This document shows positions 2,961 through 51,148 of a DNA stretch of 64,000 nt, piece by piece. Position 1 is the first letter of the stretch. Every line of letters starts with the position of its first letter. Source of the DNA: Nitrospina sp. (GTDB taxonomy: Bacteria > Nitrospinota > Nitrospinia > Nitrospinales > VA-1); the NCBI GenBank assembly GCA_018673915.1, contig JABHBK010000001.1, forward strand, positions 68,069 to 132,068, given 5' to 3'. Below the pieces are notes generated by a model. That model saw only the letters and a list, made by a program, of their open reading frames with translations, had not been told where the DNA came from and ran no database searches. The position numbers and the translations under genes were made by a program.

Positions 2961-4805
2961 TTACAAGTTTTTTAGCCTTTGTGAGCGGGCAAGATTGAGG
3001 GCCGATTTGGGTTGGGAATCCTTCTGGTTTCTATTTTCAGATTTAGATTGGATATTTACATTCAAGCTTGTTCCACCGAGCCCCACTAAATTGGAAGGGG
3101 TGAAGGATGTGGAGGTACTTGCCGTGCTAATGTTTTCTGCAGGTTTGGAATTCTTGGATTCTGAATTATTCTGTGTTTTCTGACTCGCTTGTCCAGGAGG
3201 AGTGAATGTCTCGCTGCGAATAGATGATGTAGGAGAAGCATTGCTGCTGGAAGTGGTGCTGACTCCTCCGAGTCCATTAAACGTTCTTTCCCCTGAGGGT
3301 TTGGCTCGAGTGATGTTGCGGGTTCCAAAGTCTACTCCTCCGATTCCTATTGTAGGAGTAGTGATGTTGAAATTTTGGGCTACTTCCACTCCACCAATGC
3401 CTACCGCAGGGCTATTAGCGTTTCTTATAATGGAAGCGACTGCTGGTGTAGACGGTTTTTTAGGTTCTGGTTTAATTTCTAGTTTAATATCTGTTTTAGT
3501 TTTCATTTTCGTTTTAATTTCTACTTTGACTTCTGGCTGGGAAGATTTAGGGGTTATAATTTTTTCAATTTTAGAGGTGGCCTTAGGGATGTCAATGGTT
3601 CCATTTTTTGCACTTAAGGTTCCATATGATTCGGTAGTTCCTTTAACAACGATTTTCCCAGCCATTCCCCAATCCATGAGGGTGTCAGCGTTAACTTCGG
3701 AACCCATATTGATGAGGGTGCGATAGGAGTTTTGCGTGTTGCCATTTATATCCCCGCCTATATAAGCACTGCCTTGTCCGGCGTTAGAAGAAACATCCAC
3801 CCGCGCTCCATTACGCAAGGTGACATTTTTTCCTGCAACTCTTACCAGGCCGCCTTTTTCCTGCCATCCTTTTCCGGAAGCATCAAGTTGACCGGATACA
3901 TTTACCGTTCCCTGATCTCCACCATCCAGGATAATAGCTCCTTCCTGATTCATGGAGATGGATTTTGCTTGAATGATGCCATCCATATTGATGACCTGAT
4001 CGAGCGCGTTTTGTGCTGTTGCGACCTTTAGGGTAACGATGCCGCCATCGGCATAAATTTTCCCGCTATTGGATACCTGAGCATCGAGTTCTTCCCCATA
4101 CATTCCGGTTGCTTGTTTCATTACAGTGTCATTAACGCCCAGATTAATCAGTTGGTCGCCATAAAGGTCGAGGGTGAAGGTATTGCCTGAAACAAGGCTG
4201 ACTCTTCCAAGCCTGGCGTTGATAGTGCCGGAGTTGGAAACGCCAGGAGCTACCAATGCTACCAAACCACCCTCGCTAACGGTGATGATTCCTTTGTTGA
4301 TGACGACACCCCTGGAATTGTTAGAGGGAAGGTTGAAATTGAAATTATCGTTCATAAACTCCCAATTGCTGATGTCGGTGGTGGTAGCTACCAGACCTCG
4401 AACATCTACTCTGGCTGTGTCCCCGAAAATTACACCATTGGGATTGATCAACACGAGACGACCGTTTGAATTGAGACTACCTAAAATGGATGACGCTTGG
4501 TCTCCTGTAACCCGATTCAGGGTTATGCCATTTGTGGAGGATAACTTAAAATCGACAGCTTCGTTAACCCCGACGCTGAAAGACCGCCAATCTATAATAG
4601 CCTTATCGGAACTCTGGGTGACATTAAGCTGTTGGGCATTAGGTTGGCTAAATGTTACATCACCAGTCTGCTTTGTTGGGTCTTGCGGAAGAGCATAAGC
4701 CAGATGAGTAACCAACAACGGAGAAAGGAATAGTGCGAGAAAAGTAAGGAGAATTTTTCCATCGCTGCTTTTATTGTCTGATTTTAATTTAAATATTTCT
4801 TTCAT
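2961..4805 (-). CDS. two-partner-secretion (TpsA-type) exoprotein with filamentous haemagglutinin N-terminal domain
   Basis: Has an extended signal peptide and the TPS-domain signature LNRVTGDQASSILGSLNSNGRLVLINPNGVIFG. A beta-helix-like G/N/V-rich body follows. The C-terminus is a K/E/P then S/T/N-rich low-complexity tail. Confidence 0.8.
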   Translation of the reverse strand: MKEIFKLKSDNKSSDGKILLTFLALFLSPLLVTHLAYALPQDPTKQTGDVTFSQPNAQQLNVTQSSDKAIIDWRSFSVGVNEAVDFKLSSTNGITLNRVTGDQASSILGSLNSNGRLVLINPNGVIFGDTARVDVRGLVATTTDISNWEFMNDNFNFNLPSNNSRGVVINKGIITVSEGGLVALVAPGVSNSGTINARLGRVSLVSGNTFTLDLYGDQLINLGVNDTVMKQATGMYGEELDAQVSNSGKIYADGGIVTLKVATAQNALDQVINMDGIIQAKSISMNQEGAIILDGGDQGTVNVSGQLDASGKGWQEKGGLVRVAGKNVTLRNGARVDVSSNAGQGSAYIGGDINGNTQNSYRTLINMGSEVNADTLMDWGMAGKIVVKGTTESYGTLSAKNGTIDIPKATSKIEKIITPKSSQPEVKVEIKTKMKTKTDIKLEIKPEPKKPSTPAVASIIRNANSPAVGIGGVEVAQNFNITTPTIGIGGVDFGTRNITRAKPSGERTFNGLGGVSTTSSSNASPTSSIRSETFTPPGQASQKTQNNSESKNSKPAENISTASTSTSFTPSNLVGLGGTSLNVNIQSKSENRNQKDSQPKSALNLARSQRLKNL

Positions 4806-5583: not shown

Positions 5584-6306
5584 TTATGTTCTTCCATATT
5601 CTAAAACGAACAAACCGCAAGAAATGACTCCGTATATCATGAAAATCTGAAGCAGAAAACGTGAAGAGGTAACCGGTTGAACTTCTTTACCGTTGACTTT
5701 GAAGGTGAAGGAAAACGCCTGCTTTTCTATGTGGTCATCTTTTTCAAGCATATCAAATAACTCAGCCTTAATCCGTTTTTTCTTTTCTTTCCCTTCAGAG
5801 GTTTTGACGATTACCTTGTAAGAAATATTTTGAAACAGGCCCGTATCTATCTTCTTTTCCAACACGGTTCCATCCATCACTGAAAAAAACTTAAAAAATA
5901 TCAGAGCACCCAAAAGGGAAACCATGAGAGTTTTCCCGTTGAGAAAAGTGGTGCGCAGCGTTTCTTTGTTGTTTTGTCTTTGCTGGTGTCCCATGAAGAA
6001 GGTATGCATGGCTGGAGTGAAAATATCCCATTGAAAATAAGGGTAGCCGGAGTAATGCGGACGTGTGTACCAAGGTTGGGCTTGCTCTTTGTGTTGAAAG
6101 TCATCATAAGCCCGTCTGCGCTTCAGGTCTGACAATACGGAGTAAGCTTCGGCGATTCGGGAAAATCGTTCCTGGTCGACAGGGCTGGGATTCTGAATCC
6201 GGTCAGGATGATATTGCTTCGCCTGTTCTCGATAGGCGGATTTGATTTCCAGATATCCCGCATTTTCTGTCACGCCGAGTAAGGCATAGTAATCAGGATT
6301 GCTCAT
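5584..6306 (-). CDS. J-domain (DnaJ-like) membrane protein
   Basis: N-terminal DYYALLGV...IKSAYREQAKQYHPDR with an HPD motif. Hydrophobic helices sit mid-protein and at the C-terminus. There is a 4-nt overlap with the upstream DedA gene. Confidence 0.8.
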   Translation of the reverse strand: MSNPDYYALLGVTENAGYLEIKSAYREQAKQYHPDRIQNPSPVDQERFSRIAEAYSVLSDLKRRRAYDDFQHKEQAQPWYTRPHYSGYPYFQWDIFTPAMHTFFMGHQQRQNNKETLRTTFLNGKTLMVSLLGALIFFKFFSVMDGTVLEKKIDTGLFQNISYKVIVKTSEGKEKKKRIKAELFDMLEKDDHIEKQAFSFTFKVNGKEVQPVTSSRFLLQIFMIYGVISCGLFVLEYGRT

Positions 6307-6881
6307 GATGAAGAGGGAGCCACTTTTTTGGTGAGCCAGATCATTATTACAATAAACGCCAGGGTCAGAAGGATAACGCTGGCTTTAAATGGGTTCAAGG
6401 TGTTGATCAATACTTTCCCCAATGACAGACTCAAAAAAGTATAAGCGACCGAAAAAAGGATATTGCCCGCGAACGAATATAAAATGTAACGCCGAATATC
6501 GTATCGGATCATCCCTGCAAAGGGAGGGATGATTTTAGAAACCACGAACAGAAAACGTCCAAGGATGACCATCGATGCAGGGTGGCTTCGAAAAGCACGT
6601 TGAGTCCAACGGATGGGTTTTTCCAGTTTACGGACAAAACCAAACTGCATCCAATAGTCCAGTCCGGTTTTGTAACCCAGAAAATATAAAAACAGGTCGG
6701 CGATCCAGCCTCCTGCAAATCCGCAAAACAGGACTCCATACGGGCTCAACAAATCCTGCGAAGCGGCGATACCTCCAAAAACGAGGAATAGGGGAATTCC
6801 ATAATGATCGAAATAAGTGCCGATCAGGATCACTACGTATCCGTAATCCCGGACCAGCGGTTCGATGGATTCAGGGGACAT
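6303..6881 (-). CDS. DedA/SNARE-associated family membrane protein
   Basis: 192 aa and polytopic. DedA-like motifs include GYVVILIGTYFDHYGIPLF and GRFLFVVSKIIPPFAGM. Confidence 0.75.
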   Translation of the reverse strand: MSPESIEPLVRDYGYVVILIGTYFDHYGIPLFLVFGGIAASQDLLSPYGVLFCGFAGGWIADLFLYFLGYKTGLDYWMQFGFVRKLEKPIRWTQRAFRSHPASMVILGRFLFVVSKIIPPFAGMIRYDIRRYILYSFAGNILFSVAYTFLSLSLGKVLINTLNPFKASVILLTLAFIVIMIWLTKKVAPSSS

Positions 6882-7165
6882 TATTCGCAGGAGTCACACA
6901 ACATATTGGTCAGCGCATTCATACAACAACAACCAGCATAGGTGCCTGCCCCGGACACAGCACTGTGTTTAAAAGTTTCTTTCATGTCCGGACGTTGGTT
7001 GTAATATTGTTGTGGAGGCGGCGATTGCCTGTATTGCTGGGGAATTTCTGTTTCACCCTGTTGTTGCGGGGACTCGGCATTAGGGTCCTGATTCAATCCT
7101 TTTCCACACTGGGTGCAGAAATTAGACTCTTCACTGTTTTCGGCTCCGCAATTTCCACAAAACAT
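6881..7165 (-). CDS. zinc-ribbon protein with Q/P-rich linker and Cys-cluster tail
   Basis: An internal ATG gives MFCGNCGAENSEESNFCTQCG (CxxC-x12-CxxC). The tail is GCCCMNALTNMLCDSCE. The longer track ORF (to 7228) would overlap the upstream gene. Confidence 0.55.
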   Translation of the reverse strand: MFCGNCGAENSEESNFCTQCGKGLNQDPNAESPQQQGETEIPQQYRQSPPPQQYYNQRPDMKETFKHSAVSGAGTYAGCCCMNALTNMLCDSCE

Positions 7166-7175
7166 ATTGGCTCCT

Positions 7176-8111
7176 TTAAAAATCTTTACAGTTGAACAGG
7201 GTTCGTTCAGGATTTTGTTTTTTCTCAATCATGGATTCAAACACTTTTCCTGTTTCCTTGTCAAGACAGTGAGTGATAATATTTTCGACCACGGGAAACG
7301 ATTCGTTCAGGCTCAAAGCGGGGAGGCAAGTCAGTAGTGCCTGTTTTTCGTTGGCAATGAGTTGGCTGTATTTATCATAGGTTTTCTCAAGCCGGGCTCT
7401 ATCTTCGGGGTCTACTGCTTCCTCTGCGTGTTGAATTAAATTGAACCGCCCTGCTTTTAAATCGGAATGAAAATCCTCCATTGCATCGAGTAGATTGATG
7501 ATTTTCCCCAGTCCTGTAAAAAGCACTTCCAGAGCGGAAAGGCGGGAAGGGTCGACTTTGTCTTTAAACGGTTGAGTCATGATATAGGCAAAAGTTTCGC
7601 CCCAGCATTCCTGGATTTCAGAAAAACTTTTGGAACTCTCTTCCAGTCTGTTCAGTACTTTTAGTCTTTCCTGTATTTGTTCGACATCTATGTTGAAGAT
7701 TTGGTATTGATCAATATTGGCATCAAATGTTTTTTGAAATCGGGACTGGAGAGCTTTGTTGTAGCGGGTAACCCAAAACCCTTTCTCGTCATCGAGGTTG
7801 TCTTGAAACTTTATTTGGAAAGCCAATAGGCTAATCAAGGCTCCAAGTCTTACGGCTGGATGGTCTGAGGACAGGGACGCAACTTTAGCAATGGGCATTC
7901 CTGAGCAACGATCCTTGACCGCACGGATGTCTTGCACTACCATTTCGTTATACAACATGGCGATCAGGGTGCCCTCATAGGTATTCACAAAGGCGTATAA
8001 GCGGTTGTGGGTTTTCACCATATGGCGGCAAATACTACAGTAGTAGAGCTTGTAGTACAGGCAGTCCTTGAGCAGAAGCTCCATTTTTTCCGGTTTTAAA
8101 ATTCCGATCAT
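7176..8111 (-). CDS. DUF5685-like protein of unknown function
   Basis: The N-terminus MIGILKPEKMELLLKDCLYYKLYYCSICRH matches my recollection of the DUF5685 start pattern (MxGxxxPxxxEL...Y..YCxxC). The rest is helical. Confidence 0.45.
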   Translation of the reverse strand: MIGILKPEKMELLLKDCLYYKLYYCSICRHMVKTHNRLYAFVNTYEGTLIAMLYNEMVVQDIRAVKDRCSGMPIAKVASLSSDHPAVRLGALISLLAFQIKFQDNLDDEKGFWVTRYNKALQSRFQKTFDANIDQYQIFNIDVEQIQERLKVLNRLEESSKSFSEIQECWGETFAYIMTQPFKDKVDPSRLSALEVLFTGLGKIINLLDAMEDFHSDLKAGRFNLIQHAEEAVDPEDRARLEKTYDKYSQLIANEKQALLTCLPALSLNESFPVVENIITHCLDKETGKVFESMIEKKQNPERTLFNCKDF

Positions 8112-8189: not shown

Positions 8190-9320
8190 TTGCTACAAAT
8201 ATTGACATTACTGCAACTGGTATTAATTGTGGGGATAATCGTCTACCTGACGGCGAACATGATTTATCTGGTTCGCCTTGAACCTGTTTCCCATCTGCTG
8301 GATGATCCCCCTATGGTTTCGGTATGCGTCCCGGCACGAAATGAGGAGCGAGGTATTCGGGCTTGTTTGGAATCCCTTTTAAAGCAGGATTACCCCCAGT
8401 TTGAAGTGATCGTGGTGAACGACCATTCCACAGATCGTACCGGCGAATTGATCAATGGCCTGAAAGACCCTCGTTTAATTGCGCTAGAAGGAGAGCCCTT
8501 GCCTGATGGCTGGCTGGGGAAACCTTTTGCCCTGTATCAGGCTTTTCAGAAGGCAAAAGGAGACCTGCTATTGTTCACCGATGCCGACCCTGTTTTTGAA
8601 CCTCATGCTTTAAGTACCGCTGTGTTCACCATGAGAGAACGCGAGCTGGACGCCTTGACTTTGATGCCCAAAGCGGAATTCGGTTCTTTTTGGGAGAGGG
8701 CGGTGCAACCCGTTATCTTTGGTTTTATCGGCTCCTTGACACGATTCAGAAAAGTGAACAGCCCCGATCACAAAAGCGCGATGGGATTCGGTGCATTCCT
8801 GATGTTCAAACGTTTTGCTTATGAATCCATCGGGGGACACGAGGCTGGAAAAGCCGATGTGCTGGAAGATGTGTTGATCGCTAAACGGCTTAAAAAGGCA
8901 GGATTCAAACTTCTCGTTGCCGATGCCAAGCGTTTGTTTTCTATCCGCATGTATTATGGGTTCCGTGAAATCTGGACGGGCTGGCGAAAAAATATGTTCC
9001 TGGCTATGAGACGGTCTGTTCCACGCGTGCTTTATTATGTATCCATGGTGCTGGCGTTTGTGCTAACCCCTTATCTGATTCTGGCTTGGAATGTGGCAGT
9101 TGGAACGGGTATTTTGTGGCTGGGGCTCTCCCTTTTCGGGGTGATCATGGTTTTTGCAGCATCGATAAAAACCTGCGATGAGTTGGAGATGCACCGTATC
9201 AACGCCTGTCTGTTCCCGATAGGTGCCGTTGTGATGGCGGCAATCATGATAAACTCCATGATCCAGATCCTGGTATTTTCCCGTGCTGAGTGGCGGGGAA
9301 GAGTTTATTCAATGAAATGA
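8190..9320 (+). CDS. family-2 glycosyltransferase with C-terminal membrane helices
   Basis: VSVCVPARNEERGI...DYPQFEVIVVNDHSTDRTGE and FTDAD (DxD) motifs, followed by several TM helices. Confidence 0.85.
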   Translation: MLQILTLLQLVLIVGIIVYLTANMIYLVRLEPVSHLLDDPPMVSVCVPARNEERGIRACLESLLKQDYPQFEVIVVNDHSTDRTGELINGLKDPRLIALEGEPLPDGWLGKPFALYQAFQKAKGDLLLFTDADPVFEPHALSTAVFTMRERELDALTLMPKAEFGSFWERAVQPVIFGFIGSLTRFRKVNSPDHKSAMGFGAFLMFKRFAYESIGGHEAGKADVLEDVLIAKRLKKAGFKLLVADAKRLFSIRMYYGFREIWTGWRKNMFLAMRRSVPRVLYYVSMVLAFVLTPYLILAWNVAVGTGILWLGLSLFGVIMVFAASIKTCDELEMHRINACLFPIGAVVMAAIMINSMIQILVFSRAEWRGRVYSMK

Positions 9321-9374
9321 TGACAAAACTAAACTCGATGGAATAATTAGACACTTTCCTTCCTCTAACTTGAT

Positions 9375-10277
9375 ATGCAAAATTATCCACGTCTTTTTAT
9401 AAAAGCAGGTCTTATCTATGCATTGATTGGGGCTCTGCTTGGCATTGTCATTTCGATCAATCCATCGCTTTCGCATCCGCTTCGGTTTATTCATATTCAT
9501 CTGAACCTGCTTGGGTTCATGACCATGATGGTGGCGGGTGTCGCCTACCACGTGCTGCCCCGGTTCAGCGCAAGAACCCTACCTTGGCCAGGAGGAATGA
9601 AGGTCCAGTTTATTTTGCAGAATACAGGGCTCATCGGAATGGTTGCCGTGCAGGGATTCGGCAGTTGGCGAGGCGGAGAGCATCAGCCCATTTTTGTTTT
9701 CTTTGCTTTACTCGCCGGAGTGGCATTTGGAATCATGTTTTACAATCTCTATTTTGTCCTCTCCCCGAGCGCAGAAGAAGAGGCGCCCCCTACAAAAATT
9801 ACTGGCGATATGAAAGTGGGGATCGTACTCGACCAATTCCCCTCCTCCTTGACTATTTTTATTGAGAATGGATTCCAGGCTCTGGCTAATCCCACAGCAC
9901 GGCAAACCTTTGCCAAAATGGTGTCCATAGATAAAGCCTGCGAAAAACATGGTGTGTCTTCTGCAGAGTTTCTGGAAAAACTTAATCAGGAAATTTTTAG
10001 CAAAGAAACATCTTCGGCATCCGGAGAAACTGACTCAGCAGGGCAGGAAATTCAGCGTGGGGAAATGTGTGAGGGAGATACCCGGGTGGGGAGTTTGATT
10101 AAAACTTATCTCACGACCAAGTCTGTTTTCGAAAAGCATTATGGCGAAGGCTGTTTCTCTTGTCCCGGTCAGGTCTATGAGACCGTGGCACAAACCGCCA
10201 GCATGCATAATGTCGATCTGGAACTAATTTTGGCGGAAATCAATATCGAAATAGAGAAAGAATTGAAAGCTTCATGA
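9375..10277 (+). CDS. 4-TM protein with haem-copper-oxidase helix-X-like His motif fused to two DUF1858 domains
   Basis: TM2 reads HIHLNLLGFMTMMVAGVAYHVLP. The C-terminal half has DMKVGIVLDQFP...MVSIDKACEKHGV and DTRVGSLIKTY...CFSCPGQVYETVAQTASMHNVDL, which are ScdA_N/DUF1858-like. Confidence 0.6.
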   Translation: MQNYPRLFIKAGLIYALIGALLGIVISINPSLSHPLRFIHIHLNLLGFMTMMVAGVAYHVLPRFSARTLPWPGGMKVQFILQNTGLIGMVAVQGFGSWRGGEHQPIFVFFALLAGVAFGIMFYNLYFVLSPSAEEEAPPTKITGDMKVGIVLDQFPSSLTIFIENGFQALANPTARQTFAKMVSIDKACEKHGVSSAEFLEKLNQEIFSKETSSASGETDSAGQEIQRGEMCEGDTRVGSLIKTYLTTKSVFEKHYGEGCFSCPGQVYETVAQTASMHNVDLELILAEINIEIEKELKAS

Positions 10278-10281
10278 CATT

Positions 10282-10596
10282 GTGAATTCAAAAAACGAAT
10301 TCAAAGAATATGTTCTGGATCAGCTTTGTCGGTTGAATGGTGTGGAATGCAAACATATGTTTGGCGGATTCGGCCTGTATTGCAACGGGGTGTTTTTCGC
10401 CATCATCGCTGATGGCTGTGTTTATTTTAAAACGAATGCCACCACCGTTGACGCTTTTAAGGCAAGAGGCATGCAACCTTTCAAACCCTCCGCTAAACAG
10501 ACCTTGAAAAACTATTACGAAGTCCCCGCCGAAATCCTCGAAGATGAAGATCAACTTGCCGAATGGGCAAAAAGAGCTTCGGCAAGTGACAAGTAG
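10282..10596 (+). CDS. TfoX N-terminal domain protein
   Basis: KHMFGGFGLYCNGVFFAIIADGCVYFK fits the TfoX_N pattern MFGG.GLY..G..FA.I.D..LYFK. Confidence 0.7.
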   Translation: MNSKNEFKEYVLDQLCRLNGVECKHMFGGFGLYCNGVFFAIIADGCVYFKTNATTVDAFKARGMQPFKPSAKQTLKNYYEVPAEILEDEDQLAEWAKRASASDK

Positions 10597-10682: not shown

Positions 10683-11117
10683 ATGAGCTATAAATATTTA
10701 CTAAAAGGAGAGGAGATGGACGACCCAAAAAAAGAATTTGAGCGCCTGAGACTTCTGTTTGACTATACAAAGTTCCATATAGGGATGTACACAACGATTA
10801 TTGGTATTTCTATAGGTGTGATTAAGATTGGCCCTGGTAATATAGAGATTAATATTTCTATTTTTGTCGCTGCGATTATATTATTTCTAATTGCTGGTTT
10901 AGCGGGGGGAGTGATAGCGAGTAGCACTCCAGAGTACACAAGTTACACTGAATTTTTGAAGGCAGAAATATTTCCCGGTAAAAGGGGATGGCTTAAGTTT
11001 ACGGCGAAAAGCTGGATTCGTAAAGAGCATAGGTGTTTCTGGATTGCTGTGGCTCTGCTATTACTATCTTTTTGGAATCCATTATTCTTGAGATCGCTGG
11101 ATATTATTTGTAAATAA
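10683..11117 (+). CDS. hypothetical membrane protein
   Basis: 144-aa ORF with 3-4 hydrophobic helices. I do not recognise the family. Confidence 0.45.
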   Translation: MSYKYLLKGEEMDDPKKEFERLRLLFDYTKFHIGMYTTIIGISIGVIKIGPGNIEINISIFVAAIILFLIAGLAGGVIASSTPEYTSYTEFLKAEIFPGKRGWLKFTAKSWIRKEHRCFWIAVALLLLSFWNPLFLRSLDIICK

Positions 11118-11121
11118 AAAT

Positions 11122-11544
11122 TCAGGCAATTAAGGCTTGTGCTCCTGCTTCGGCTACTGCGTGATCGTTTTCAACGGAAGAGCCAGACACGCCAATAGCG
11201 CCCACAATATTTCCTTCTTTATCTTTCAGCGGAACGCCGCCGGGGAAGGTGATTAATCCACCGTTGGAATGTTCGATGTTAAAGAGTGGTCCGCCGGGTT
11301 GGCTGAGTTTGCCAATCTCTCCAGTGTTCATATCAAAGAAGCGTGCGGTTTTTGCTTTTTTGATTGAGATGTCAATGCTCCCCAACCAGGCACCTTCCAT
11401 CCGGAAAAAAGTTTTTAGGTTTGAGCCCGCATCTACCACGGCAATATCCATTTTGCAATCTATCTCTCTTGATTTCTCCATCGCTGCTCTTAAAACTTTT
11501 CTTGCTGCTTCGTCAGAAATATCTTTGGTTGTAACCTGTTCCAT
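11122..11544 (-). CDS. GlcG/HbpS-like (DUF336) haem-binding protein
   Basis: [39 protein letters not shown] and [19 protein letters not shown] are typical of the family. Confidence 0.8.
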
Positions 11545-11670: not shown

Positions 11671-12459
11671 TTAGATGGGGGGCTTATCCTGTTTCGCTTC
11701 TTGCCAGTATTTTTCCAGTTCCTCGAGGGGGGTGTCTTTTAGCTCCTGGCCACGTTTGGCGACTTGTTCTTCGATATATTGGAAGCGCTTGATAAATTTG
11801 TTATTGGTCATGCGCAGGGCTTCTTCGGCATCGATCTTTTTGAATTTAGCGATGTTGACCAGCACGAATAGGATGTCTCCCAGTTCGCCTTCGATATCAG
11901 CTTCTTTTCCTGAAAGTACTGCTTCTTTGAACTCGGCGACTTCTTCATCGAGTTTGTCGAACACTGCGGTGATTTCATCCCAATCGAACCCTTGCTTGGC
12001 GGCTTTCTTTTGCAGTTTTTGTGCGCGCAGGAGTCCGGGCAGATGTTTTGGAACCCCATCCAGTACCGATTTTCTGTGAGCATTATTTTTTTCCTGCTTT
12101 TTAATTTCTTCCCATTGCGTGACGACTTCGTCCGGGGTTTCCAGATTGCCTTCCTGGAAAACATGCGGGTGGCGGCGGGTCATTTTTTCGCTGATGGATT
12201 GCACTACATCTTTAATATTGAACTCCCCTCTGTTTTCTGAAATTTTTGCGTGGAACAAAATTTGATAGAGCAAATCTCCCAGTTCGTCCTTTATTTCTTC
12301 CGGATTATTTCCATCCAGAGCTTCCAGTGCTTCGTAGACTTCCTCGACCAGGTAAGGTTTCAGAGATTCGCGCGTCTGGACTTTATCCCACGGACAACCG
12401 TTTTCGCTCATCAGTGTGTCGACAATTTCGGTTAGTTTTTTAAATGCTGAATCACTCAT
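11671..12459 (-). CDS. mazG: nucleoside triphosphate pyrophosphohydrolase MazG
   Basis: Tandem MazG domains: CPWDKVQTRESLKPYLVEEVYEALEA...ELGDLLYQI and EELGDILFVLVNIA. Confidence 0.9.
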   Translation of the reverse strand: MSDSAFKKLTEIVDTLMSENGCPWDKVQTRESLKPYLVEEVYEALEALDGNNPEEIKDELGDLLYQILFHAKISENRGEFNIKDVVQSISEKMTRRHPHVFQEGNLETPDEVVTQWEEIKKQEKNNAHRKSVLDGVPKHLPGLLRAQKLQKKAAKQGFDWDEITAVFDKLDEEVAEFKEAVLSGKEADIEGELGDILFVLVNIAKFKKIDAEEALRMTNNKFIKRFQYIEEQVAKRGQELKDTPLEELEKYWQEAKQDKPPI

Positions 12460-12465
12460 GAATTA

Positions 12466-13602
12466 TTAAGCCAGAAATTTTAAGATGACCGAGTCGGCGA
12501 TGAAAAGTCCTTTTCTCGACAGGGCCATTCGGTTTTGATTGAAAGTGATGAGACCTTCGTTGAGCAATGGGTCGACCACTTTTCCGTAAACATTTTTAAA
12601 AGAGATCTGGAACCGATTTTCGAAGTCTTCAATTGAGATGCCCTTGAGACGCCGCAGACCCAGCATAATGGTTTCGCCCATAGCGTGTAAAAGGTCAAGC
12701 TTTTCGGTGGATTCCACTGCTGACCCTTTTGCCTGCACTTCACGGATGTAGCGGGAGGGCAGATTGGTATTTTTGAAACGCTCACCCTTTAAATAGGAGG
12801 AGGCACCGGCCCCGAGGCCGAGGTATTCGCCGTTATCCCAATAGTTGAGATTGTGTCTGCATTCGAATCCGTGCCTGGAAAAATTTGAGATTTCATACTG
12901 CTCATACCCTGCGGATTGTAATGTTTCAATAGTTGTCTGAAACATTTCCAGGTGGGTTTCTTCGGGAGGCAGGGTGAGGAGTCCTCGTTCCTGCAATTTA
13001 AAGAATGAGGTCGTAGGCTCTATGGTCAATCCGTAGGCAGAAATATGTTCGGGCTTCTTGTCGAGTGCTTGTTGTAAATGAGATTGCCATATTGCCGGGG
13101 ACTGACCGGGAAGGCCCGACATTAAATCGAGAGAGAGGTTATCGAATCCGGCTAAACGTGCTCGATCTACTGTGGTGTGGATCTCTTCCTCATTGTGTAC
13201 GCGTTCTAAAAGCTTCAGCTCATCAAGGTCGAAGGATTGCACGCCTATGCTGATGCGGTTGAACCCTGAGGAACGGATTTGTTCCAGCGTCTCCTGCTTT
13301 ATGGTTGCCGGGTTGGCTTCGATGGTGATTTCGCAATCGGCGCTGAGATTGAAATGTTGCTTCACTTTGCCGAGAATTTTATCCAGGCTGGCGGGAGGCA
13401 GAAGGGTGGGGGTGCCGCCGCCAAAAAACACAGTGGGGACGGTTTGAGGGGCTAGTTTCTGCGCGTAATGTTCGATCTCCAACAACAGAGCGGGAACATA
13501 AACCTCTGATTCCTCCTGATTTTCTGGATGGGAATTGAAATCACAGTATCCGCATTTGTGCAGGCAGTATGGAATGTGAATATATATTCCCAATGGGTTC
13601 AT
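12466..13602 (-). CDS. hemW: radical-SAM haem chaperone HemW (coproporphyrinogen III oxidase-like)
   Basis: IHIPYCLHKCGYCDFNS (CxxxCxxC), GGGTPT and a HemN_C-like tail. Confidence 0.88.
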   Translation of the reverse strand: MNPLGIYIHIPYCLHKCGYCDFNSHPENQEESEVYVPALLLEIEHYAQKLAPQTVPTVFFGGGTPTLLPPASLDKILGKVKQHFNLSADCEITIEANPATIKQETLEQIRSSGFNRISIGVQSFDLDELKLLERVHNEEEIHTTVDRARLAGFDNLSLDLMSGLPGQSPAIWQSHLQQALDKKPEHISAYGLTIEPTTSFFKLQERGLLTLPPEETHLEMFQTTIETLQSAGYEQYEISNFSRHGFECRHNLNYWDNGEYLGLGAGASSYLKGERFKNTNLPSRYIREVQAKGSAVESTEKLDLLHAMGETIMLGLRRLKGISIEDFENRFQISFKNVYGKVVDPLLNEGLITFNQNRMALSRKGLFIADSVILKFLA

Positions 13603-34297: not shown

Positions 34298-34726
34298 TTA
34301 CTTGACCCAGCTTTGGCGGATGTATTTCACGACATCCCAGATCTCTTTATCCTTCATAGATTTTTTGTGAGCGACCATCCCGGTTCCGGGGGAACCATTT
34401 TTGATGATCCAGAACATTTGTCCGGCCGAAACATCTTTCATGGTATCGCTACAAGTGAAGTTGCGAGGATTAGGTTTTAACGCTTTACCCAGTTTGCCCA
34501 TGCCATCGCCCTTTTTTCCGTGACACATTTTACAGGCCAAAGGTTTTGCTTTTTTGGCGTAGATCTTTTTGCCATTTTCCGCGTTCGCCTTGGCAGTTTT
34601 ATCCATCGATGCGATATTCGAAGGGGCCGATTTAGTTTTCCTTGGTTGTGGACAGTTGCTGGCCGCCCAGGTGGAGGTGGTGAAGAACAGGATGCTTATT
34701 GCAGTTATTAGTAAGGTTTTTTTCAT
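34298..34726 (-). CDS. class-I mono-haem cytochrome c
   Basis: Internal ATG MKKTLLITAISILFF (signal peptide). Haem motif CKMCHG, with a distal Met candidate in PGTGMVAH. Confidence 0.8.
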   Translation of the reverse strand: MKKTLLITAISILFFTTSTWAASNCPQPRKTKSAPSNIASMDKTAKANAENGKKIYAKKAKPLACKMCHGKKGDGMGKLGKALKPNPRNFTCSDTMKDVSAGQMFWIIKNGSPGTGMVAHKKSMKDKEIWDVVKYIRQSWVK

Positions 34727-34847
34727 TTTGGTTTCTCCTCTTTCTTGTTGATGAATACGTTTCTCAAGTTTTAATCCCAACCCCCTCGATCCCCCTTGCC
34801 TAGGGGAGGCTAATTTACCCATGACAAGGAGGATAGGGAGGCCGAAA

Positions 34848-35648
34848 TTACTTCGCTGTCAATTCAAAGTTAGCGTTGATTTTTGCTCCTTCTGCTACCG
34901 TGACTTCCTGAGTCATTTCCCCTACATAAGGATGCCATGCGGTGACTTTGTAAGTACCGGCAGGAATATTATCCAAGGTGAATGAGTCTGTGCTCACGGT
35001 GTAGTAAGGATTCCAAACGATTCGCGCATCTGCTTCCATGTAGTTATGCTGGTCGCATTGCAGGAAAAAATGGGAATCCTTTTTAGCTTTTAATCGCTTG
35101 AGGGACTTGGTGACATCGGCAATAGACCCTTTAGAAGGAAGCGGTTTATTAAACAGCGTTTTACGATTCGCTCCTTTAATGGAATAACCGTGTGGGTTGT
35201 GCAGAGTGTTCTCGTCTTGATTGGTCACTTGCACCAAGCCTTCTTTCATACCTTTTGGTGTTTTACGGATGACCGTTACCTTGGGGAAAATATCACATTG
35301 CCGGAAATCGAAATTCACAGTTTTTTCAGACCAGGCTTTGCCTTTGCTGATATTTTCGATCAGGATCACTGCGTTGTGAAGTTTTCCATCTTTAACCTCT
35401 ACTTTCTGCCTGGGTCGGATACCTCCCTCTTGTGTATCGGGGTGGGTGGCGCAGAACTCGGCATTTTTGCCTTTGCTCAAATCTTCCAGGATAGGCGCGG
35501 GGACGTTTCCTTTGAACATAACGCTTCCTGTAATAGACCCCCCATTGGAAACCTTTGCTTCTTCATAGCTGGCTTTCTTTGCGTGAACATTACCCGCCAG
35601 GGCCAGTGTGATTACGGTAGTGACTGCTATTAAGTTTAATTTTTTCAT
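34848..35648 (-). CDS. periplasmic cupredoxin-like (type-1 Cu) protein flanked by carboxypeptidase-regulatory-like segments
   Basis: Signal peptide present. VTNQDENTLHNPHGY plus the FFLQCDQHNYM loop (H ... C-x2-H-x2-M). GSITGSV... at the N-terminus and FTLDNIPAGTYKVTAW...ANFEL at the C-terminus. Confidence 0.6.
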   Translation of the reverse strand: MKKLNLIAVTTVITLALAGNVHAKKASYEEAKVSNGGSITGSVMFKGNVPAPILEDLSKGKNAEFCATHPDTQEGGIRPRQKVEVKDGKLHNAVILIENISKGKAWSEKTVNFDFRQCDIFPKVTVIRKTPKGMKEGLVQVTNQDENTLHNPHGYSIKGANRKTLFNKPLPSKGSIADVTKSLKRLKAKKDSHFFLQCDQHNYMEADARIVWNPYYTVSTDSFTLDNIPAGTYKVTAWHPYVGEMTQEVTVAEGAKINANFELTAK

Positions 35649-36069: not shown

Positions 36070-37428
36070 CTAGGTTAACTGGTATTTTTTTAGCATGCGG
36101 TAAAACGTGCTGCGGCTGATTCCCAAAGCTTTCGCCGCACCGGGGATATTTCCGTCGGTTTGTTCCAAGGCCTGGTTTAGAGTTTGCTTGACCACTTCAT
36201 GGTAGGGAGTGAGACCCTCGGTTTTTGCATTTATCTTTTCATCAGTAGGAGCTGAAGAGTCGAAGACGTCTTCGGGTAAACAGTCGGCGTCCAGAGTGTC
36301 GTAGGAGGTGACGATCATGGCCTGATAAAGAGTGTTTTCGAGTTGGCGGATGTTTCCGGGCCAGGAATATTCCTGCAAAATCTGCATGGCTTCATCACTG
36401 ACTGACAGGATTTCTTTGCCAATATCTTTTTGATGTTTTTTAAGGAAATGGCTGCAAAGCGGAGGAATGTCTTCTACTCTATCCCGCAAGGCGGAGACTT
36501 CTATGGGAAAGACGGCCAGCCGATAATAAAGGTCTTCTCGAAAGGCTTCTTTTTCAATCAATGTTTTAAGATTTTTGTTGGTCGCACAGATTACCCGGGT
36601 ATCAACCTGTATTTTTTGGGTGTCTCCCACGCGCTCTAAATATTTTTCCTGCAAAAAGCGCAACAATTTGGCCTGGGTGGAGAGGCTCATTTCCGCCACC
36701 TCATCGAGAAACAGGGTGCCTCCATCTGCCAGCTCCAGTTTTCCGGGTCGAGATTCGGTGGCGCCGGTGAAAGCCCCTTTTTTATGGCCGAACAATTCGC
36801 TTTCCTGTAGTGATTCGGGAATGGCTCCGCAATTGATATCTACAAAAGGTCCTTTGGCGTAGGTGCTGTTACGATGAACGGCGCGGGCAATGAGTTCTTT
36901 TCCGGTTCCGGTTTCTCCGAGAATGAGTACGCTGGCTTTGGTGGGTGCGACCTGATGAACTTTTTTTAGTGTTTCATTTAACGCATTACTATTGCCTATG
37001 ATTTCATCTTTTCCGGATAGACGGTCCACTTCGCTTTGCAGGTGGTGGACTTTGCGGACCAGGTTTCTTTGTTCAAAGGCTTTATCCAGACAGGTAAAAA
37101 GACGGGTTTCATCAACAGGTTTTAAAAGATAGTCATAAGCACCTAGCTTGATCACTTCGACAGCGGTTTCGACTTTGTCAACGCTGGTGAGCATGACCAC
37201 AGGTATATCTGGGTGGGTGGCTTTGATTTGTTTTAAAGTTTCCTGGCCGCTCAGGCCGGGCATCATCACATCGAGGAGGATCAGAGAAGGATTGTCCTCC
37301 AGTGCGTCAAGCAAGGCTTTTCCGCTTTCGAATTTTTGCACTGCATAGCCCTGGTCTTCCAAAAGCGCCTTCATCAGGCCTCTCAGCGGGGAATCATCAT
37401 CGACTACGAATATCAACTCAGTGGCCAT
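36070..37428 (-). CDS. sigma-54-dependent response regulator (NtrC family)
   Basis: REC domain (VVDDD, LILLDVMMPG, KP). AAA+ domain with GETGTGKE, GAFTGA and LFLDEV. C-terminal Fis-type HTH. Confidence 0.93.
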   Translation of the reverse strand: MATELIFVVDDDSPLRGLMKALLEDQGYAVQKFESGKALLDALEDNPSLILLDVMMPGLSGQETLKQIKATHPDIPVVMLTSVDKVETAVEVIKLGAYDYLLKPVDETRLFTCLDKAFEQRNLVRKVHHLQSEVDRLSGKDEIIGNSNALNETLKKVHQVAPTKASVLILGETGTGKELIARAVHRNSTYAKGPFVDINCGAIPESLQESELFGHKKGAFTGATESRPGKLELADGGTLFLDEVAEMSLSTQAKLLRFLQEKYLERVGDTQKIQVDTRVICATNKNLKTLIEKEAFREDLYYRLAVFPIEVSALRDRVEDIPPLCSHFLKKHQKDIGKEILSVSDEAMQILQEYSWPGNIRQLENTLYQAMIVTSYDTLDADCLPEDVFDSSAPTDEKINAKTEGLTPYHEVVKQTLNQALEQTDGNIPGAAKALGISRSTFYRMLKKYQLT

Positions 37429-37548
37429 TTTAATTCAAATCAATAGGTTAGGCTTATCATTCATTGATTGTAGCCCACTCCGCAAAATTTAAGAAAAAAA
37501 TGATAAACTGATGGTGTTCACAATTTCAAGGAAAGGTGAAAATTTCAA

Positions 37549-49733: not shown

Positions 49734-51107
49734 TTAAATAAAATATTTACGTTTCAGGCCTAGAGCCTTGAGGCGATTGTAAAGAGTTTGCCGGGAAAGG
49801 CCCAAATTGGTATAAGTTTTTTTGATATCCCCTTTATTGCGAGTCAGTTCTTGAGAGATCAGACTTTTTTCTATAGCGGCTAATTGGTTATTCAATCCGG
49901 TAGGAGGATTCTTAAGTGTTTGTTGAATAGAAACCTGAATATCATTTTCTGCGCTTGGGGTGCTGGTATCGGGAAGGCCCAGGACGAATTTGTCGGCTTC
50001 ATTTTTAAGTTCACGAACGTTTCCCTCCCACTTGCGAGACTGGAGAGCAATAATAAGCTCTGGAGAAGGGACCGGCGGTGTTTTCTGATTGTAGCGTGAA
50101 CAGGCATCCAATATTAGATGATGAAACAATAATGGGATATCTTCAACCCGCTCGCGCAGAGGGGGGAGAGCGATTTGAACCACATTGAGGCGATAATACA
50201 AATCTTCCCGGAACAGGTTTTGTTCACTGGCTAATTTTAGATCTGTTTTTGTTGCGGCAATAATACGGATATCCAGAGGTATGAGTTCGTTGGAACCGAC
50301 TCGCTCAATCGCTTTTTCTTGAATCACACGGAGAAGCTTTACCTGAAGGTGCAGGGGCATACTTTCAATTTCATCCAGGAAAACGGTTCCTTTGTTGGAG
50401 TGCTCAAATTTTCCGATCCTTTTACGGTCTGCGCCGGTAAAGGCCCCTGCTTCATGACCGAACAACTCACTCTCAATAATATTTTCAGGCATAGCCCCGC
50501 AATTGATAGCTGTAAATTTATGATTGCTTCTTTTGCTGGACTGATGAATATTTTGAGCGATGAGGTCTTTTCCCGTTCCCGTTTCTCCAAAAATAAGTAT
50601 GTCGGCATCGGCATCGGCGATATTTGAAATAACCTGACGAAGACGTTCGATGGAAGGGGACTTCCCTACAATCATATTCTTAGTGTCGTTTTGGTGGTTG
50701 ATTTTGGATCGGAGGTTCCTCACTTCCATAACAAGGCGGCGCTTTTCCTTTGCCCGTTTAATGGCATCTATGAAGGTTTCGGTAGCAAAAGGTTTTTCTA
50801 AAAATTCATAAGCTCCGTTTTGGATCGCCTGGACTGCCATGGAGATATTCCCCTGGCCTGTAATGAGGATGACGGGGATTTCCGGGTCTACTTCTTTGAC
50901 TTTTTCCATCAAGGTCAGGCCATTCATTTTTGGCATTATTACATCGCTCACCAATACGCCTGGCCAATCTGGTGAAATGGAAGCCAGAGCATCTTGTGCG
51001 GAATCAAAATCTTCCACTTCAAAGTTTTTATTTTGAAGTTCTCTTTTGAGGGATAAGCGGACCACTTTTTCGTCATCAACTAAAAAAACTTTTTCGCTGG
51101 TACTCAT
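49734..51107 (-). CDS. sigma-54-dependent response regulator (NtrC family)
   Basis: REC domain (FLVDDE, VLVSDVIMPKMNG, KP). AAA+ domain with GETGTGKD, GAFTGA and VFLDEI. C-terminal HTH. Confidence 0.93.
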   Translation of the reverse strand: MSTSEKVFLVDDEKVVRLSLKRELQNKNFEVEDFDSAQDALASISPDWPGVLVSDVIMPKMNGLTLMEKVKEVDPEIPVILITGQGNISMAVQAIQNGAYEFLEKPFATETFIDAIKRAKEKRRLVMEVRNLRSKINHQNDTKNMIVGKSPSIERLRQVISNIADADADILIFGETGTGKDLIAQNIHQSSKRSNHKFTAINCGAMPENIIESELFGHEAGAFTGADRKRIGKFEHSNKGTVFLDEIESMPLHLQVKLLRVIQEKAIERVGSNELIPLDIRIIAATKTDLKLASEQNLFREDLYYRLNVVQIALPPLRERVEDIPLLFHHLILDACSRYNQKTPPVPSPELIIALQSRKWEGNVRELKNEADKFVLGLPDTSTPSAENDIQVSIQQTLKNPPTGLNNQLAAIEKSLISQELTRNKGDIKKTYTNLGLSRQTLYNRLKALGLKRKYFI

Positions 51108-51148
51108 ATTTATTATTCCCAAAAATATTGTTCTTAATAATTAGACCT

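Follow-up and report, generated by a model that had tools for sequence, protein, structure and literature searches.

A haem-copper oxidase-like four-helix membrane module fused to tandem DUF1858 domains in Nitrospinota

Introduction

Haem-copper oxidases (HCOs) and nitric oxide (NO) reductases (NORs) are thought to derive from triplication of a four-helix unit, and free-standing four-helix units are the only extant proxies for the HCO/NOR ancestor. Pei, Li, Kinch and Grishin reportedly gave, in 2014 (Protein Sci 23:1220), a computational description of HCO homology (HCOH) proteins made of a single four-helix evolutionary unit. These proteins, with four transmembrane helices (TMHs), are said to be most like TMHs 9 to 12 of the oxidases and to have been proposed to form homo- or heterotrimers, with NnrS as the 12-TMH member of the group; roles in denitrification and NO detoxification were reportedly suggested. 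NnrS contains haem and copper. Here we describe a gene at positions 9375-10277 (+ strand) of a 64-kb stretch of a Nitrospina sp. contig (JABHBK010000001.1), the whole of which we call the window. The gene encodes one such four-helix unit joined to two DUF1858 domains.

Both halves of this protein have relatives described in other settings. The four-helix homotrimers YgdD and MAPEG have been discussed as resembling the 12-helix HCO core, with reference to Pei et al. 2014 (PMC4602095). In V. cholerae, nnrS contributes to NO resistance as part of the NorR regulon, which is needed for it (PMC3345576). A DUF1858 gene of B. diazoefficiens lies beside nnrR, hemN2 and nirK, and its expression drops 29-fold when nnrR is mutated (PMC6710368). 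DrpB, a protein of nitrate respiration in Thermus, consists of a DUF1858 and two DUF2249 domains (PMC6282519), and fusions of SufT with DUF1858 exist as well (PMC4982691).

Results

The gene is an intact open reading frame (ORF) with an ATG start and a product of 300 amino acids. Its G+C content is 46.6%, near the 44.0% of the window, and so gives no compositional sign of recent transfer. From the ORF list and the sequence, its product consists of a four-transmembrane (4-TM) HCO-like module with two DUF1858 domains behind it, an architecture written M-a-b below. The membrane module spans residues 1-132 (9375-9770, +); Pfam, profile searches against the PDB, AlphaFold2, Foldseek and a count of charges describe it as four TM helices, predicted N-in/C-in, equivalent to TMHs 9 to 12 of the cbb3 oxidase subunit CcoN. 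In the AlphaFold2 model the helices run from 4 to 28, 30 to 64/65, 72/73 to 94/95 and 104 to 129, and are followed by two small helical domains with a disordered linker between them. The mean predicted local distance difference test score (pLDDT) of the full-length model is 81, falling below 50 at residues 212-221. These lie in the linker (residues 200-233; 9972-10073, +), which is partly disordered by pLDDT and, in the alignment of orthologues, varies in length and contains gaps. The second TM helix (TM2) reads HIHLNLLGFMTMMVAGVAYHVLP. It carries an H40-I41-H42 motif near the periplasmic side (9492-9500, +; H40 at 9492-9494, H42 at 9498-9500), whose histidines are presumed haem ligands from the alignment with CcoN and from conservation, and, at its cytoplasmic end, H59 (9549-9551, +) within a Y-H-V-L-P-R motif. 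A sequence-only reading of the window had described this frame, the TM2 motif, the tandem DUF1858 domains and a CFSCPG motif in the second of them, all of which the ORF list, Pfam and NCBIfam bear out.

The relationship of the membrane module to oxidases was assessed with profiles and with structural models. On the single sequence, Pfam COX1 (PF00115) matched residues 5-96 to profile positions 307-401 of 436, at E=3.2e-5 and a sub-threshold 23.4 bits (gathering cutoff, 34.8). A membrane-domain profile built from 22 diverse module sequences and run against the PDB found CcoN at E=1.5e-11 (9g6b_A), 4.6e-11 (8smr_E) and 1.3e-9 (3mk7_A). Its main stretch fell on CcoN residues ~309-416 and a second one on 439-465, together the last four helices of that protein. 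The initial observation had been a likeness of TM2 to helix X of bovine COX1, quoted as a string that proved exact (residues 376-398 of 1occ_A); the Pfam COX1 and module profile E values take this likeness beyond chance. In the profile alignment, H40 and H42 align with the haem-ligand residues H345 and H347 of P. stutzeri CcoN (3mk7_A). They also align with H376 and H378 of bovine COX1, which are the haem a3 and haem a ligands. Weak extra stretches of the profile were found at CcoN 13-104, where H60 falls on H40, and 207-246, where H207 falls on H42, with independent E values of 1.9-61. They may represent the second helix of each of the other four-helix thirds of CcoN, a correspondence that is suggestive only.

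A model of the membrane module alone (pLDDT 92.5; predicted TM-score, 0.85) gave in Foldseek almost only catalytic subunits of the HCO superfamily (cbb3, cNOR, aa3, ba3 and bo3), at probability 1.00 and query-normalised TM-scores of 0.7-0.79. With the model of all 300 residues, the best match was 2fi0 and COX1 chains appeared only at E ~1, the multi-domain arrangement having swamped the signal. The structural resemblance to oxidases on which the sequence-only reading depended was thus found, in the CcoN profile matches as well as in the HCO and NOR catalytic subunits retrieved by Foldseek. Taken jointly with the family assignment discussed below, the oxidase likeness of the four helices is very likely to reflect true homology, namely to the helix IX-XII part of HCO subunit I. 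The twelve-helix core is not contained in one polypeptide, as the AlphaFold2 model has only four TM helices. The CuB histidines of helices VI and VII and the helix-II haem ligand are not present, those helices being missing.

Counts of lysine and arginine follow the positive-inside rule, with 2 at the N terminus, 2 in loop 2, and 0 and 1 in the outer loops. They point to an N-in/C-in topology. The DUF1858 domains would then be cytoplasmic, and the H-x-H motif would lie at about one-third of the membrane depth, counted from the periplasmic face, a position like that in HCOs.

The conservation of the histidines was then compared at several distances. H40, H42, H59, P62, R63, C263-P-G and H278 are invariant in 31 aligned orthologues, and H40 and H42 are invariant also in the 22 diverse modules. 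For the wider family, residues were counted at non-gap positions of 157 single-copy modules: H40 is kept in 151/153 and H42 in 153/154, whereas position 59 is His in 136/156 and Phe in 17/156. Among 21 distant M-a-b proteins (28-47% identity), position 59 is His in 11 and Phe in 10. H40, H42 and, in part, H59 are the only conserved histidines of the module. The sequence-only reading had made its case depend on conservation of the histidines among homologues; this stands for the near-invariant H40 and H42, while H59, the twentieth residue of the motif counted from H40, is often replaced. Because Phe takes its place in many relatives, H59 is not an obligatory ligand, and we downgraded it as a candidate third metal ligand. 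H40 and H42 are probably the functional pair, with H59 in a structural role.

In proteins with three fused copies of the module, H40 is kept in 21, 6 and 13 of 28 for copies 1, 2 and 3. Such an uneven loss from fused copies, set against the constancy in single-copy proteins, is the pattern expected if the latter form symmetric homo-oligomers and the former are specialising pseudo-trimers.

With a limit of E<=1e-3, an exhaustive profile search with the module returned 3016 cluster representatives from many phyla; 692 of them passed E<=1e-10. The full-length protein has 359 homologues, of which the best 120 are all about 300 residues long and 57-99% identical; the named sequences among these 120 come from Nitrospinae/Nitrospinaceae metagenome-assembled genomes. 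These numbers bear on the idea that the gene is a decayed cbb3 ccoN fragment, accidentally fused to DUF1858 and non-functional. Only the last third of CcoN is matched, after all, and Pfam COX1 stays below threshold. Yet the ORF is intact, its product is conserved at the above identities across more than 100 clusters, and in a family of this size and spread the key residues are under strong constraint. The conservation data refute a pseudogene or ccoN fragment, whose probability we regard as practically nil.

An architecture census of 193 family sequences showed that the module most often stands alone (118 sequences of ~135-160 amino acids, with stand-alone forms of 135-156 residues among the family). 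The architecture of the window protein was found in 21 sequences, M-a in 12 (some of them truncated) and M-b in 5. Tandem modules occurred as M-M in 7 sequences (~270-290 residues), as M-M-M in 18 (~407-423 residues), and as M-M-M with flanking DUF1858 or ScdA_N domains in about 10. One-, two- and three-copy proteins measure ~137, 280 and 415 residues, with no extra linker domains. The tandem forms lend some support to the idea that the module is related to each internal four-helix unit of the HCOs.

The three-copy proteins score as COX1, NnrS or both, and the family grades into NnrS-like 12-TM proteins. P0177 matches Pfam NnrS at E=0.003, and the three-copy relatives P0194, P0199, P0210 and P0269 match NnrS as well; P0199, P0210 and P0269 are made of ScdA_N, a 12-TM NnrS-like core and DUF1858, to which P0269 adds FeS_assembly_P. 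The local hidden Markov model for the second DUF1858 ("DUFb") also catches the N-terminal ScdA_N-type domain of these 12-TM relatives, which has GCGG, not CxxC, so that the label b-M-M-M-a denotes an ScdA_N-like N terminus and not a CxxC-type domain.

A side observation concerns P0171 (413 residues; relatives P0183, P0186 and P0189), which consists of three tandem module copies and little else. With H-x-H in all three copies (six histidines) and a match in three stretches that takes it past the Pfam COX1 threshold, this HCO-like 12-TM protein is close to symmetric and links single units with NnrS and with oxidases.

The soluble half of the window protein matched Pfam DUF1858 (PF08984) in two stretches (E=3.6e-24; 85.1 bits against a cutoff of 32.2). 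The first domain, with its best Pfam stretch at residues 142-199 (9798-9971, +), is of the type that lacks CxxC (GFxxLANPxxR); it matches 2fi0_A and 2k53_A by sequence and 2fi0 in Foldseek at probability 1.00. The second (residues 234-290; 10074-10244, +) belongs to TIGR03980, the "hybrid cluster protein-associated redox disulfide domain" (63.7 bits against a cutoff of 44.95), with a weak ScdA_N match (E=3e-4) and a PDB sequence match to 2k5e_A. Both domains are predicted to be cytoplasmic. Two DUF1858/ScdA_N-like domains, the second with a redox-disulfide CxxC, had been proposed from the sequence, and Pfam above gathering and TIGR03980 above cutoff agree. The CFSCPG motif occupies residues 260-265 (10152-10169, +); C260-F-S-C263 (10152-10163, +), the following P-G and, downstream, H278 form the conserved core of the domain. 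In the 21 distant M-a-b proteins C260 is kept in 20, C263 in 21, P264 in 21, G265 in 20 and H278 in 21; with G257 they make up the strictly conserved features of the partner domain. C189 (13/21) and C232 (5/21) are lineage-specific, and a four-cysteine metal or cluster site made of C189, C232, C260 and C263 was therefore rejected as a general feature. No hemerythrin di-iron domain was found in the 300-residue protein (TIGR03652, 16.2 bits against a cutoff of 204.7).

A selenoprotein form of DUF1858 with CxxU exists (PMC9312934), which argues that the CxxC motif is redox-active. The protein could be a transmembrane electron conduit, passing electrons from cytoplasmic CxxC thiols through haem to a periplasmic or membrane acceptor, as part of a thiol-disulfide or reductase system. 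The invariance of the CxxC, the selenocysteine variant and the predicted topology, in which the CxxC is cytoplasmic and the H-x-H lies towards the periplasm, fit such a role. However, no second bridging redox centre is evident, since H59 is not conserved, many modules stand alone without a thiol domain, and no periplasmic partner is conserved. We consider a conduit quite improbable.

We scanned species-representative genomes for the module and ran a local domain census on the 80 loci obtained, 47 of Nitrospinota type and 33 from other phyla. The M-a-b fusion is present in 34 of the 47. In the window, the gene is preceded by a membrane GT2 glycosyltransferase gene (8190-9320, +), HpnB/CruG-like in Pfam and NCBIfam but below those cutoffs, and followed by a gene for a TfoX_N-domain protein (10282-10596, +; Pfam PF04993, E=2e-29) that starts 4 nt past its stop. 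GT2 lies at most 400 nt upstream in 36/44 Nitrospinota-type loci against 0/29 others, and TfoX_N at most 600 nt downstream in 22/37 against 0/30. The gaps in the window, 54 nt from GT2 to the module gene and 4 nt from there to TfoX_N, shrink to 3-4 nt elsewhere in Nitrospinota. GT2, module and TfoX_N (8190-10596) look like a conserved Nitrospinota operon. A promoter-like site (10/12) occurs at 9320-9347, but shuffled sequences contain at least as many such sites. The whole 64-kb window has no tRNA gene and no Rfam family above threshold.

This gene order raises the possibility that the module is an accessory membrane subunit of GT2, a redox-regulated or haem-dependent partner in the glycosylation of a membrane lipid (a hopanoid or carotenoid, for example), with DUF1858 tuning the activity. 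GT2 sits directly upstream on the same strand in those 36 of 44 loci, with gaps down to 4 nt, its adjacency holds despite rearranged flanks and in modules without DUF1858, and its resemblance is to HpnB and CruG. Nevertheless, it is never adjacent in the 29 loci from other phyla, and synteny within one phylum may simply be inherited. Neither the H-x-H motif, nor the HCO/NnrS homology, nor the NifU, DUF1858 and nirK contexts described below have an evident tie to glycosyl transfer. An accessory subunit of GT2 is thus unlikely.

Downstream of the TfoX_N gene, on the opposite strand, lie genes for an HbpS-like protein of the haem-degrading type (11122-11544, -), MazG (11671-12459, -) and the radical-SAM haem chaperone HemW (12466-13602, -; TIGR00539, 356 bits, above cutoff). 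MazG and HemW are also paired downstream of the module gene in two further loci, L005 and L012, but not in L001, L006 or L007. HemW and the HbpS-like protein, encoded 1-3 kb downstream, might suggest a haem chaperone, an insertase or an assembly factor for respiratory oxidases. Against this, their genes are in the opposite orientation, are separated from the module gene by others and are missing in L001, L006 and L007, and no oxidase genes are nearby. This role is very improbable.

Several other genes of the window were noted. A 144-codon ORF at 10683-11117 (+) encodes hydrophobic stretches and matches nothing in Pfam or NCBIfam. Divergent from GT2, a block encoding DnaJ-DUF7489, a VTT/DedA-type membrane protein, a small ORF and DUF5685 (5584-8111, -) occurs also in L007, which has a 58% identical orthologue, and represents a second conserved synteny type. 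A 614-residue protein with a two-partner secretion (TPS) domain (2961-4805, -) suggests a secreted haemagglutinin- or adhesin-like exoprotein. By local phmmer, a c-type cytochrome and two sigma-54-dependent activators are encoded at 34301-34858 (-), 36073-37434 (-) and 49737-51140 (-).

The 33 loci outside Nitrospinota come from Nitrospirota, Acidobacteriota, Bacteroidota, Thermodesulfobacteriota, Gemmatimonadota, Sericytochromatia, Chloroflexota and others. There, either the module carries one or two fused DUF1858 domains, or a CxxC-DUF1858 gene of 70-94 codons comes after it. The product of this separate gene has the same GxGCFTCPG...MHNxDP signature and is TIGR03980-like, at 37 bits, below cutoff. 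Where the two are split, a gene for a 75-residue NifU-like (Nfu-type) iron-sulfur (Fe-S) carrier lies directly upstream in 12/12 loci (L064, L066, L069, L071, L072, L076, L078, L079, L082, L085, L091 and L092; at ~5650-6750 in most), 11 of them labelled Nitrospirae, Nitrospiraceae, Nitrospira or Thermodesulfovibrionia and 1 Bacteroidetes. At the level of gene architecture and order, these data show the CxxC-DUF1858 domain to be a recurrent partner of the module, fused to it or encoded next door. That fusion and fission recur across phyla is good evidence that the two work together.

It was also observed that divergent glyQS often precede the split cluster, and that a gene for a sigma-54 activator whose N terminus is a PilZ domain often comes after it.

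Three loci give the module a context linked to N-oxide and Fe-S biology (L084, 2818-6653; L090, 2917-6486; L087, 3812-6369). In Longimicrobiales it follows nirK (TIGR02376, 356 bits, above cutoff), a porin gene and a gene of the FGE-sulfatase (NirV-like) type, and in a Gemmatimonadota locus it is near nosD (441 bits) and a multihaem cytochrome gene. In Sericytochromatia the order is a DUF1858-DUF2249 gene, a 434-codon HCO-like gene and the module.

The sequence-only reading had proposed an NO- or O2-responsive protein, that is, a haem-based membrane sensor relaying its signal through DUF1858 to a regulator. For DrpB, which contains DUF1858, a sensor function in the nitrate respiration of Thermus has been proposed (PMC6282519, PMC11218638), and a sigma-54 activator gene comes after the Nitrospirota cluster in several loci. 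Nevertheless, no output domain (kinase, DNA-binding, cyclase or other) was found in any architecture class, the module is often alone, and no regulator is conserved beside the Nitrospinota genes. The sensor role is thus unsupported, and we regard it as rather unlikely.

Discussion

The module is homologous to part of an oxidase subunit, has a near-invariant histidine pair and is linked recurrently to a thiol domain. We tentatively favour the view that the window protein is a haem-binding NnrS-like homotrimer with a cytoplasmic thiol-redox partner, protecting iron and Fe-S centres from nitrosative or oxidative stress. Three four-helix subunits would assemble into a 12-helix bundle like that of HCOs or NnrS. 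A b-type haem would then sit near the periplasmic side, with H40 and H42 of adjacent chains as its ligands, an arrangement modelled on CcoN, where H60 and H347 hold haem b; the trimer would have no CuB site. In the cytoplasm, the CxxC-DUF1858 domain, helped by the first DUF1858 without CxxC, may serve as a thiol-redox or iron-handling partner. In this nitrite-oxidising host the assembly would not respire; it would shield or repair iron and Fe-S centres under stress from NO, nitrite-derived species or oxidants. The parts of this proposal differ in strength. Haem binding by a homo-oligomer is probable on balance, and is supported indirectly by the pattern of histidine conservation. The physiological role in stress protection, which is drawn by analogy with NnrS and RIC/ScdA-type proteins, is possible but somewhat doubtful.

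Several observations weigh against this proposal. In 12/47 Nitrospinota-type loci, a few of them cut by a contig end, the module has neither DUF1858 domain. Where flanks are available (e.g., P0142 and P0144), this shorter form occupies the same genomic slot, and by these comparisons the DUF1858 partner is dispensable in some Nitrospinota lineages. The genes conserved beside the module in this phylum are GT2 and TfoX_N, not N-oxide or Fe-S genes. Nearby nor, hcp or nir genes, for which the sequence-only reading had suggested looking, were absent within +/-10 kb in four Nitrospinota orthologous loci (hcp being identified by the Prismane/HCP Pfam label). In the 64-kb window, NirK, NosD, HCO-type and further DUF1858 genes were all absent, and no hcp-specific search was made beyond +/-10 kb. 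The nirK, nosD and DrpB-like contexts are single loci each, and it is relatives in other phyla and the NnrS and DUF1858 literature, not Nitrospinota loci, that provide the N-oxide link. In addition, the presumed haem site and the CxxC would, going by the topology, be on opposite faces of the membrane, with no intermediate cofactor identified, and the Foldseek matches of the module alone have weak E values (at least 0.024).

A bolder version of the homotrimer can be imagined. A threefold symmetric (C3) assembly with up to three bis-His haems, each between H40 and H42 of adjacent subunits, and three CxxC domains would be a minimal version of the ancestral HCO unit. It might catalyse a reaction that no known HCO relative performs, such as reducing or scavenging NO or iron-nitrosyls at the membrane in a process coupled to thiols or Nfu. 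This is unlikely; if true, a 300-residue protein would allow direct tests of how HCOs arose and of what NnrS and DUF1858 do chemically.

Apart from this, a small, strongly conserved family with an invariant H-x-H and a defined soluble partner, a CxxC-DUF1858 domain sometimes accompanied by an Nfu-type carrier, is a tractable entry point into several questions. They include whether single units trimerise and bind haem, what chemistry NnrS-type proteins perform, and how DUF1858/ScdA_N domains function in nitrosative-stress and Fe-S biology. The module gene is near-universal in Nitrospinota, marine nitrite oxidisers that live with nitrite and NO.

Among known systems, the single-unit HCOH proteins come closest. 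Like them, the window module has four TMHs most like HCO/NOR TMHs 9 to 12 and conserved histidines, and its stand-alone forms have a gene of their own. All the sequence and structure features examined agree, and the module is a member of this already described, computationally defined class. The remark in the sequence-only reading that the protein was not known to be characterised therefore holds experimentally, but not for the computational side, where four-helix HCO homologues had already been described. The cbb3 subunit CcoN (3mk7_A, 9g6b_A) offers, in helices IX-XII, the best match by both sequence and structure, and shares Y-H-x-x-P-[KR] at the end of helix X. The window protein differs in having no helices I-VIII, no CuB histidines and no partner subunits CcoO and CcoP, and so cannot be an oxidase as a single polypeptide. 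NnrS (PF05940) belongs to the same superfamily, and three-copy relatives of the module score as NnrS, some with ScdA_N or DUF1858; however, the window protein has 4 TM helices and not 12, and gives no NnrS Pfam match at E values up to 10.

The soluble half is of the same small helical family (PF08984/PF04405) as the N-terminal domain of RIC/YtfE/ScdA, the TIGR03980 proteins and Thermus DrpB, which are tied to NO, nitrate and Fe-S biology. In contrast to RIC, ScdA and DrpB, the window protein has no hemerythrin di-iron domain or DUF2249, and no hcp was found within +/-10 kb in the four orthologous loci. MAPEG and YgdD, as four-TM homotrimers, are an architectural precedent for the trimer model; to our knowledge they have no H-x-H motif and do not bind haem. 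Compared with all of these, what is new lies in context and detail: the tandem-DUF1858 fusion as the dominant form in Nitrospinota, the likely GT2-module-TfoX_N operon, the NifU-module-DUF1858 cluster of Nitrospirota, and the difference in histidine conservation between single-copy and fused modules. The gain is a well-characterised example in a new context rather than a new kind of system.

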